DNA of 64,000 nucleotides, from the NCBI RefSeq assembly GCF_963506605.1, contig NC_083280.1:63054001-63118000 (forward strand), given 5' to 3'. Within the stretch, counting starts at the first letter, position 1. The number at the start of each line of letters is the position of its first letter. The notes under the pieces were generated by a model that was not told where the DNA came from, made no database searches, and was given only the letters and a program-made list of their open reading frames with translations. Origin of the DNA: Zootoca vivipara. Taxonomy: Eukaryota. This document shows, piece by piece, positions 54,881 to 56,963 of this stretch. A program made the translations under genes and the position numbers.

Positions 54881-56963
54881 TTTTTTTTTGAACATACTTT
54901 TTATTAATTTTACAAAATACAAAAAAGCAAAAAAAAGGTACATACTTAAACCCCTTTTCCACCTCCTTCCTACCCACCCACATGGGTCCTCCCCTGCCAC
55001 AGAAGTATCCCATGTATGTGAACAGTCAGAGATGGTCCATTTTATGCTTGGGTTTCTGTCCTCCCCCCCCTCCCCTGACCCCAAAGCCCCCCCCTGCCAC
55101 CAGGGAGCTCCAGCAAACCAGGGCAGTACGCAGGAGGACATCCATCCAACCATCTATTGTCATACCAAAAAAAAAAAAAAAGAAAAATAGAAATAGGAAA
55201 AAAGGGGGGAAAAAAAGAAAGGGCGAAAAAAGAAAAAAGAAAAAACAATACAAAACAAAAAAATTTTCTTGCATTCATAGTTGTAAAACCATATTTTGTG
55301 GGCTTCCCCTCCCCCCCCTTCCCCGGTTTTCATCCCTTTTTTATCATCTGCAACAGTTTCTTACTTTATAAAAATACACCTTTGCATCTTATACAACTTA
55401 TAAATCAATTGTTAACATTTTCATCTAATATTCAAATCACTGAGAAATCAAACTCCCATTTTCTCTTCCCGTGCCTAATTTTTTGTTTTTTCTCCCTCTA
55501 TAAGCCTCCATATTTTCACATTTTCCAAAATCCATTCACTTTTAAAACTATAACTATTCTCAATTTAACCTTACATCCCCGATTGCCGGCTTCCCCTCCC
55601 AATCCAGCAAATTCCAAAATCAGCAGACCAGTTATAAACCTGTTAATCCATCCTTAATCACAACATCACTTTCCCTTCACCCCACCCCCTGTTTACAGTC
55701 TTTTGTCATCCAGGCCACCATACAGGACCCCTGAATTTCTTCTCTTCTCTGCATATTTTTTCCTTCTTCCCTGTGGGCGTTCTGGAGTTCCAATGATACC
55801 AATCGTGCCCCCCTCAAAAGCAGGGCACTCCATCCAACTTTTTGTAGAGTAGAGTCATCATTTTTTTCGTGGTGTGCTTCATTTTGTGTTGAATCATCAC
55901 AATCCTCATCTTCTTCTTTTCCTTCCCCATCATTGTCATTCTCACATTCATCTTTTTCAGTGTCAAAAGCTTCATCTCCTAAAAAATCATATTCCGCCAT
56001 CACCTCCTGGAATTTTTCCTGTAACTCTTGCCGTCGTGTCTCCTCTTGACATAACTCTATTCTTGTTTCCCACATTAAGGTCAAAACAGACCGCTGGAAC
56101 TCAGGGGAACACTTTTTTGTTGACATATTTCAGTCCTGCCAAGGTCAAAACTTGTCACGTGGGGTGGAATATGATCACAGTTTATTTTTCGACTCCATTT
56201 TAACAAGCTGGCTGCATTCTTCAAGTCTTATTGACAATAAAGTTCGAACTCACATTTCACAAACACTTAAGCCAAAAAAGAAATTCCACAAAGTCCAGAG
56301 ATACAAAGTGAAGTAAAATTTGACTTATAAATCCTGACAACTCACTGGGTTGTCTGGGCTGCCGGCTCCCGAGTGGAAAGGTTTTTTCTTAGGCTGTACC
56401 TCTTTATTGCAGGGCAGTCATAAACCGCAGTCTCTCTCCCCTTTTCACCCTGCATCAAAGGGGAGATTCTCTTTGATGCCTTTGAGGGATCCTTTGAATT
56501 GTAAATCTTCTGTTTATGGCTTCGGGTTTCTATTTACTGTCTCTTTTGTTGCCGTGGGGGGGGGTGGCTTCCTCTTTTCTCCCCTCTCTCCCAGATCCAA
56601 ATTGTTTTATAATAATCCAAATCATGAGGTTACTTACAGTCTTTTCCAATCGTTTTATTTTTGGAAGAATCCAGCGCTCTCCGCCTTCGGCTTGAAGCTT
56701 CTCCCTGCTAGAATAACGTTGCCGCTCAAAATGGCCCCCGCGACTTCTACCCTCCTCGCTCCGGAGCTCTTATTAGAGCTAGCCGAAGAGTTGGGGAGTC
56801 CGGATTGGGTCTGTGCCGAGCAAATTGCCCTCGGGACGCCCTTCCCGAGGTTCTAAGGGGCGCAGCGTCGCTCTCGCTGCCCTCCCCACTCCTAGCAGAG
56901 ACGGGCCGTCTCGGAGACGAGACGAAGCCCCGCCGATCGACGCTGGCGCTGAACCCGGAAGCC
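54881..56963 (-). mobile_element. Complete 2083-bp non-autonomous L1-type retroposon (no ORF2)
   Basis: 17-bp TSD TATTTTGGCAATTTTAT at 54864-54880 and 56964-56980. CpG-rich head starting GGCTTCCGGGTTCAGCGCC; AATAAA-AAGTATGTTC-poly(A) 3' end. Confidence 0.9.
55677..56126 (-). CDS. 149-aa ORF of the 2.08-kb retroposon (predicted N-terminal helix/coiled coil plus acidic tract)
   Basis: Uninterrupted ORF with ATG in GAAAT-ATG context (A at -3), 9 nt downstream of a TTTTGACCTTGGCAG acceptor. Translation is not demonstrated. Confidence 0.5.
   Translation of the reverse strand: MSTKKCSPEFQRSVLTLMWETRIELCQEETRRQELQEKFQEVMAEYDFLGDEAFDTEKDECENDNDGEGKEEDEDCDDSTQNEAHHEKNDDSTLQKVGWSALLLRGARLVSLELQNAHREEGKNMQRREEIQGSCMVAWMTKDCKQGVG

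Follow-up and report, generated by a model that had tools for sequence, protein, structure and literature searches.

The window analyzed here, a 64,000-nt stretch of the Zootoca vivipara genome, harbors a discrete element of 2083 nt on the minus strand, running from 56963 to 54881. It is bracketed by exact 17-bp target site duplications (TSDs; no strand assigned) of sequence TATTTTGGCAATTTTAT, one copy abutting the 5′ end (56964–56980) and the other the 3′ end (54864–54880). The head of the element (56638–56963, minus strand), hereafter type A, starts with GGCTTCCGG, like L1s of the same genome, and is CpG-rich, with 31 CpG in the first 328 nt of the element versus 2–7 per 328 nt elsewhere; it is likely an internal Pol II promoter. 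It continues into a 5′ leader (56136–56637, minus strand) that contains all six upstream ATGs, with short upstream ORFs of 1–37 codons, as well as splice-donor-like sites at 56637, 56345, and 56253 and an acceptor AG at 56137–56136, 9 nt ahead of the ATG of the main ORF. The latter is an orphan ORF of 149 aa at 55677–56126 (minus strand; 139–165 aa in other lineages of the family described below). The 3′ UTR (54906–55676, minus strand) comprises a T-rich tract (about 55164–55263) besides two G-rich ones and resembles L1 3′ UTRs in its make-up, without alignable homology to them. Within the terminal ~56 nt (54881–54936, minus strand), an AATAAA signal at 54900–54905 is separated by 10 nt from a 9-nt A tail. 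The TSD, the CpG-rich head, the AATAAA signal with poly(A), and the single 149-aa ORF had all been described in a previous sequence-only reading of the window, and each was recovered at these positions. The same reading had noted the lack of EN/RT sequence and of tRNA boxes. Indeed, no stretch resembling EN/RT or ORF1 emerged from tblastn/tblastx comparisons with 40 full-length L1 loci (best tblastn E 0.13), no tRNA gene was predicted by ARAGORN, and Rfam returned no match at the gathering score. Elsewhere in the window, a (TAT)n/(AAT)n microsatellite pair at 57343–57382 forms a near-perfect inverted repeat, and a palindrome at about 57564–57647 (L001:3765–3848) matches Rfam mir-5408 on both strands with 39.8 bits, versus a gathering score of 90; it is probably a small inverted-repeat element.

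The 1.44-Gb assembly contains about a thousand copies of this 2.1-kb retroposon. With up to two mismatches allowed, a 3′ motif was counted at 978 genome places and an ORF-start motif at 830, while exact matching retrieved head A 301 times and an unrelated head, termed B, 199 times; reversed controls gave 0 in all cases, and ratios between these counts are rough, since the motifs differ in mismatch tolerance. A large share of the copies is long: the 40 scored among 1322 candidates, including the window copy, all span the whole 1664-nt query at 99–100%. Further, an own TSD was found at 26 of the 30 fetched loci of the best-scoring family matches. Many whole-length copies with shared ends and individual TSDs are what the sequence-only reading had anticipated for a genuine family, and a single-copy origin, named there as a refutation, fails. 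We also sampled the heads to assess whether they belong to an autonomous L1 as well. All 20 places examined of the 301 with head A (chosen outside the top ORF matches) and the first 30 of the 199 with head B run into the family body and none into ORF1/ORF2, with an early break-off into other sequence in 4 of these 50 places.

Family members fall into several lineages. The window copy belongs to the youngest subfamily, A1, whose members are 0.05–0.43% apart; A2 differs from the window copy by 3%, and older A forms make up further lineages. Lineage B, at 16% from the window copy and 0–0.34% within its subfamilies, is as young as A1. Lineage C is separate; D and E lie 22% and 24% from the window copy, respectively, the members of E being 1.7–6.4% apart. 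Lineages have thus diverged by up to about 24% yet retain the same ends and length, and the youngest copies differ by ≤0.5%. The view of the element as young and full-length therefore stands for these near-identical, multi-copy, ORF2-less sequences, but the family as a whole is also old. A genome search with the lineage E protein retrieved nothing more remote among the best 150 of 1318 candidates. The heads of C, D, and E are of type A (86–90% identity), which indicates that head B was gained later; the swap point in lineage B maps at around position 318, just ahead of the first donor-like site. L1 itself is known to replace its heads (PMC5381506). Some copies have a peculiar structure. At L029/L031 (G000:C1:12724604-12728743), a full-length B copy has landed antisense in a young A copy, inside its T-rich tract, which is an L1-type target on the opposite strand. 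L019, L215, and L236 hold either an inverted segment of the twin-priming type or two nested family copies in opposite orientation, and the single copies L159 and L185 have lost part of the ORF through internal deletions whose junctions are other than GT-AG.

Several features of the copies point to an RNA intermediate made by Pol II. The lineage B copy L222, which has its own TSD, an A tail, and an intact ORF, lacks exactly positions 617–816 of B, a GT..AG segment, and thereby joins the equivalent of the donor at 56345 to the acceptor before the ATG. Its junction has one G, as splicing gives, whereas CAG microhomology would give two. Among 7 places where the sequence leading into the ORF is not preceded by G, L222 is the only spliced one, the remaining 6 being unspliced. 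The first donor-like site (ACT/GTAAGT or a near variant) and the acceptor region are kept in 10 out of 10 inspected copies across lineages, and the upstream ATGs of A, C, D, and E all lie between donor and acceptor; in B, one of them precedes the donor. A pure run of 1–7 G stands ahead of CTTCCGG in 99 of 135 copies, and variable 5′ G runs are expected from a capped transcript. The inverted, twin-priming-type copies L019 and L215 are further evidence of an RNA origin. Two RNA-seq runs with the same species label yielded 559 and 186 family reads, mainly in the orientation that sense RNA would give (a single study, in which about 6% of each run was read; library strandedness assumed); because the reads carry subfamily variants, this signal is at the level of the family and not of the locus. 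In a search of indexed runs, no holder listed was recorded as RNA, and two other organisms showed shares of 0.06 and 0.04, figures that speak neither for nor against a wider distribution. The data do not favor splicing as the main route, as neither run listed a junction at the predicted sites, read depth is high inside the leader, and the precise junction that the first donor would give occurs nowhere in the genome. Splicing appears to be a minor route, and the conserved donor could serve U1 protection against AATAAA sites in the leader. Collectively, the precisely spliced L222, the variable G runs, and the sense-biased reads support the claim that the element is driven by Pol II. As had been proposed, the element is not a SINE: besides the blank tRNA and Rfam searches, the spliced copy points to Pol II.

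TSDs, poly(A), and target sites are established signatures of target-primed reverse transcription (TPRT) and point to the L1 machinery. The TSD measures 15–20 bp in 115 of 135 family cases versus 22 of 24 cases for full-length L1s, the latter drawn from 34 L1s with both ends. At the target sites of 139 copies, T/C occupies position −1 in 80% and A occurs in 55–73% at each of the next five positions; the resulting Y/RAAA profile is common to the family and the local L1s. Where the head was found, L1s of this genome start with G(A/G)CTTCCGG, mostly as GACTTCCGG and in some cases as GCTTCCGG. The former is the terminus reported for lizard clade-1 L1s, while anole clade-2 L1s start with GGGNGCTGCGCATGC (PMC5381506), which is unlike the family head. 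At the other end, the last 35–56 nt of the element are 77–93% identical to the 3′ ends of several L1 families, a match that is short and AT-rich. A profile of this tail placed 7 of its 8 matches at L1 3′ ends (E 0.001–0.8), and the reversed control gave 1 match at 0.62.

The terminal CTTCCGG and these last 35–56 nt are the only L1-like parts of the element in comparison with 60 L1 loci, a clade-1-type set taken from 150 RVT_1 matches (40 loci with long open frames) and 121 ORF1 matches (20 loci). None of the 60 shares head or body with the family, and profile searches with either head, the leader, or the 3′ UTR retrieved no match in them. Hence, aligning head and tail to L1s, as suggested for finding the partner, yielded matching termini but no partner among these loci. 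Two other candidate similarities were rejected. A weak match of the head to the 5′ UTR of L091/L092 (single sequence, E 0.003) vanished with a profile of all lineages, and the 3′ UTR aligned with L1 inter-ORF spacers (E 1.5e-5) through low-complexity T tracts, a match that the profiles do not reproduce. The fixed head in hundreds of copies and the lack of ORF2 similarity bear out that the element is not a truncated L1. Because TSD lengths, target sites, and terminal motifs match those of local L1s, we infer that L1 ORF2p acting in trans is the likely engine of the family, in support of the mobilization route put forward in the sequence-only reading.

The ORF was intact in 124 of 129 full-length copies, a set partly chosen by protein search, which favors intact ORFs, and in 26 of 30 head-B copies picked regardless of the ORF. 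No stop was found among 125 inferred internal-branch changes, of which about 9% would be expected to produce one under neutrality (chance about 1e-5). In nine pairwise comparisons with the window copy, ORF indels, where they occurred at all, measured 12, 21, or 27 nt, which makes 0 frame-breaking events, versus 10–22 in 1160 nt of UTR; the probability of zero ORF frameshifts is 0.0002–0.02, or 0.0006–0.14 when homopolymer runs are excluded. The ORF alignments with D and E contain some small gaps that compensate each other and leave the net frame intact. Codon models returned an omega of 0.64 for 67 unique younger ORFs (2ΔLL 8.5) and of 0.51 for 89 unique ORFs including the old lineages (2ΔLL 48 against omega 1), whereas the true ORF1s of this genome were best fitted by 0.05, the lowest value tried. 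In the younger set, the synonymous share is similar on internal and terminal branches (43/125 vs 43/115, p 0.69). At the DNA level, the ORF (0.73–0.74) is not better conserved than the UTRs (0.73–0.80). Judging from these sequence comparisons, the ORF is kept open by selection, while constraint on its amino acids is weak and far looser than on ORF1 (omega 0.51–0.64 versus 0.1 or less).

The putative protein has a pI of 4.5 and half the length of ORF1. The AlphaFold2 model (mean pLDDT 60) consists of a confident helix at residues 8–51 (pLDDT about 95), an acidic disordered middle, and a low-confidence C-terminal helix, with no beta strands. The conserved N-terminal helix and the acidic tract may bind L1 ORF1p/ORF2p or a host ribonucleoprotein, a tentative assignment that we regard as just short of evenly balanced. 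Word-index searches for homologues near the length of the ORF, longer, or with a 16-sequence alignment returned none, and neither did HMMER, run with a 6-sequence alignment over the full set of 1.84 billion representatives, nor two queries of the ESM Atlas; PDB sequences gave one match at E 2.6, and Foldseek found no fold match in the PDB with the low-confidence model. The protein collections searched are thin in reptile repeat proteins. Pfam has no match to the ORF either, which carries no weight because it also misses the four real local ORF1s tested. Likewise, a PF02994 search, which is insensitive, gave no match anywhere in the genome.

What the ORF contributes can be read in more than one way. 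The same parasite might profit from the act of translation alone, if an open frame stabilized the RNA and held it on ribosomes near newly made ORF2p, the peptide itself having little function. Such a reading would accommodate a frame that is very strongly preserved at an omega of just 0.51–0.64, a C-terminal third that is only 40–43% identical between the window copy and lineages D/E, and the lack of a homologue or fold match. However, omega is significantly below 1 in all three ORF regions (0.47, 0.44, and 0.59; 2ΔLL 15, 26, and 11), the N-terminal 48 aa, with their confidently predicted helix, remain 65% identical and include many near-invariant positions, and no lineage has shifted its start or stop codon; we place translation without a working peptide on the unlikely side. 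Less probable still is that the element is a true HAL1-type half-L1 whose ORF is a remnant of ORF1, for instance its last helix and acidic tail, drifted past recognition. HAL1s arose several times in mammals (PMC5753468), the ends of the element are of L1 type, and local ORF1s do end in a helix, an ‘FLG’-like motif, and an acidic tail, where the best HMM places ORF residues 40–90. Yet this alignment scores 1.9 bits, whole-sequence ORF1 HMM scores are equalled by 19–29% of shuffles, and profile–profile probabilities against 21 local ORF1s are 0.06–0.25%. The absence of beta strands from both models leaves no room for an RRM or CTD, and the protein is acidic and half as long as ORF1. These results uphold the earlier statement that the element lacks an ORF1 with RRM/CTD. 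By eye, the N-terminal helix also looks like the beginning of the ORF1 coiled coil, but this similarity was dropped, as it scored below zero.

Two further explanations concern the origin of the whole element. Its partner or parent might be an unsampled clade-2 L1, a Tx1 element, or an extinct clade-1 L1, of which it would be a bipartite deletion derivative. The clade-1-type composition of the 60 fetched loci, taken from the best RVT_1 and ORF1 matches, and the insensitivity of the PF02994 search leave some room for such a parent, but the short body follows at 50 of 50 sampled head places, the anole clade-2 terminus does not resemble the family head, and both TSDs and target profile agree with those of local clade-1-type L1s, which makes this origin quite improbable. 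Finally, processed pseudogenes of one highly expressed host gene would also display a CpG-island head, an ORF, AATAAA, and poly(A), all of them mRNA features. This explanation is largely refuted and retains only a very slight probability: lineages amplified separately with their own diagnostic changes and one head swap, the intron-like leader was left unspliced in all but 1 of 7 places, none of the searched collections yielded a protein homologue, and no host parent gene was seen among the best 150 genome matches. The element is accordingly no ordinary processed pseudogene, as had been argued from the window alone.

Most probably, then, the family consists of RT-less retroposons of the Pol II class that are copied in trans by L1 ORF2p. 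Transcription by Pol II from the CpG-rich head would yield a capped RNA of 2.1 kb whose 3′ end is set by the L1-like AATAAA and carries poly(A). This capped, polyadenylated, and unspliced RNA would be the template, recognized through its poly(A) and the L1-like last ~40 nt; L1 ORF2p would nick a T-rich site, prime on the A tail, and copy the RNA, often to full length. The ORF would be read from the same unspliced RNA, past the short upstream ORFs, and its acidic product may act in cis, helping its own RNA to capture the L1 machinery. Action in cis would account for the absence of an ORF-less lineage, none having been found in the sampled copies, although hundreds of intact copies could also supply the protein in trans. 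We tentatively propose, at slightly less than even odds, that the family represents an uncatalogued class of vertebrate L1 parasites with their own helper protein, unrelated to ORF1p. This small, acidic, helical protein would act in cis to divert ORF2p, would have persisted despite about 24% divergence and the exchange of a promoter, and would let largely full-length copies build up in high numbers. No description of such a lizard element was among the papers listed by literature searches; it is quite possible that the family has been catalogued under a generic name.

The element can be compared with several known systems. SVA of hominids, of about 2 kb, is presumed to be transcribed by Pol II, is mobilized by L1, and has poly(A) and long TSDs. 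The element has size, poly(A), long TSDs, and probably Pol II transcription and L1 mobilization in common with it, but SVA is a non-coding composite with a VNTR, whereas the element combines a selected ORF with L1-type termini. As for HAL1 and the element, both are non-autonomous, have L1-type ends and no ORF2, have kept one ORF coding for long (PMC5753468, PMC3627910), and amplify as families with L1-type TSDs and poly(A). However, HAL1 encodes ORF1p, whereas the ORF of the element has neither ORF1 homology nor an RRM/CTD fold, is about 150 aa long, acidic, and under an omega of about 0.5, with no parent L1 traced among 60 loci. The element thus works like HAL1 but lacks the ORF1 that defines it. 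HeT-A (Jockey clade) and Ag-Sponge (CR1 clade) are likewise protein-coding, RT-less, and partner-dependent, and their proteins have been proposed to multimerize with those of the partner (PMC5786205); they differ in that their protein corresponds to the ORF1p of the partner and in belonging to other clades and hosts. RIME, NARTc, and the Vingi/RTE derivatives are fixed-length LINE parasites, likely transcribed by Pol II (PMC5786205), but they are non-coding and alignable to both ends of their parents, which the element is not. As far as the consulted sections of PMC5786205 go, non-autonomous LINEs split into ORF1-bearing ones (HeT-A, HAL1, and Ag-Sponge), so that all protein-coding forms carry the ORF1 of the partner, and bipartite ORF-less ones, reported only from RTE, Ingi, Vingi, and R2; the element fits neither group. 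The spliced copy L222 recalls human L1 SpIREs, which are spliced within the 5′ UTR and retrotransposed (PMC5860796), but it arises from a non-autonomous element and uses an acceptor 9 nt before the ATG. A word search of the available part of PMC5381506 retrieved no mention of non-autonomous elements, HAL1, or splicing. The element is, overall, a well-supported protein-coding non-autonomous LINE parasite.

If the proposed reading is true, a recently active, thousand-copy L1 parasite with a selected orphan protein would embody another way round the preference of L1 for its own RNA. Alu gets round this preference through SRP/ribosome docking. The family also renders testable whether translation itself or the protein made wins access to ORF2p. 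Near-identical full-length copies with a CpG promoter, present in hundreds, are likely to include insertion polymorphisms useful as markers, and orphan genes annotated in this genome probably include false ones that derive from the family. The L1s fetched for comparison show features of their own. This genome hosts many distinct L1 families side by side in which both ORF1 and ORF2 are intact (L081–L140), with ORF1 identities of 31–72%; a long acidic tail terminates most of these ORF1s, and the Pfam L1 ORF1 families recognized none of four that were tested. One group of these L1s has a long polypyrimidine tract (L091:2350–2447, L101:2300–2419, and L121:2940–3001) whose final CAG lies a few bases upstream of the ORF1 ATG and which resembles the acceptor of a 5′ UTR intron. 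Long polypyrimidine tracts are also present in the inter-ORF spacers of L085, L094, L081, and L097 (about 3100–3480), some of them ending in AG shortly before ORF2, so that ORF2 of these families might come from spliced RNA.
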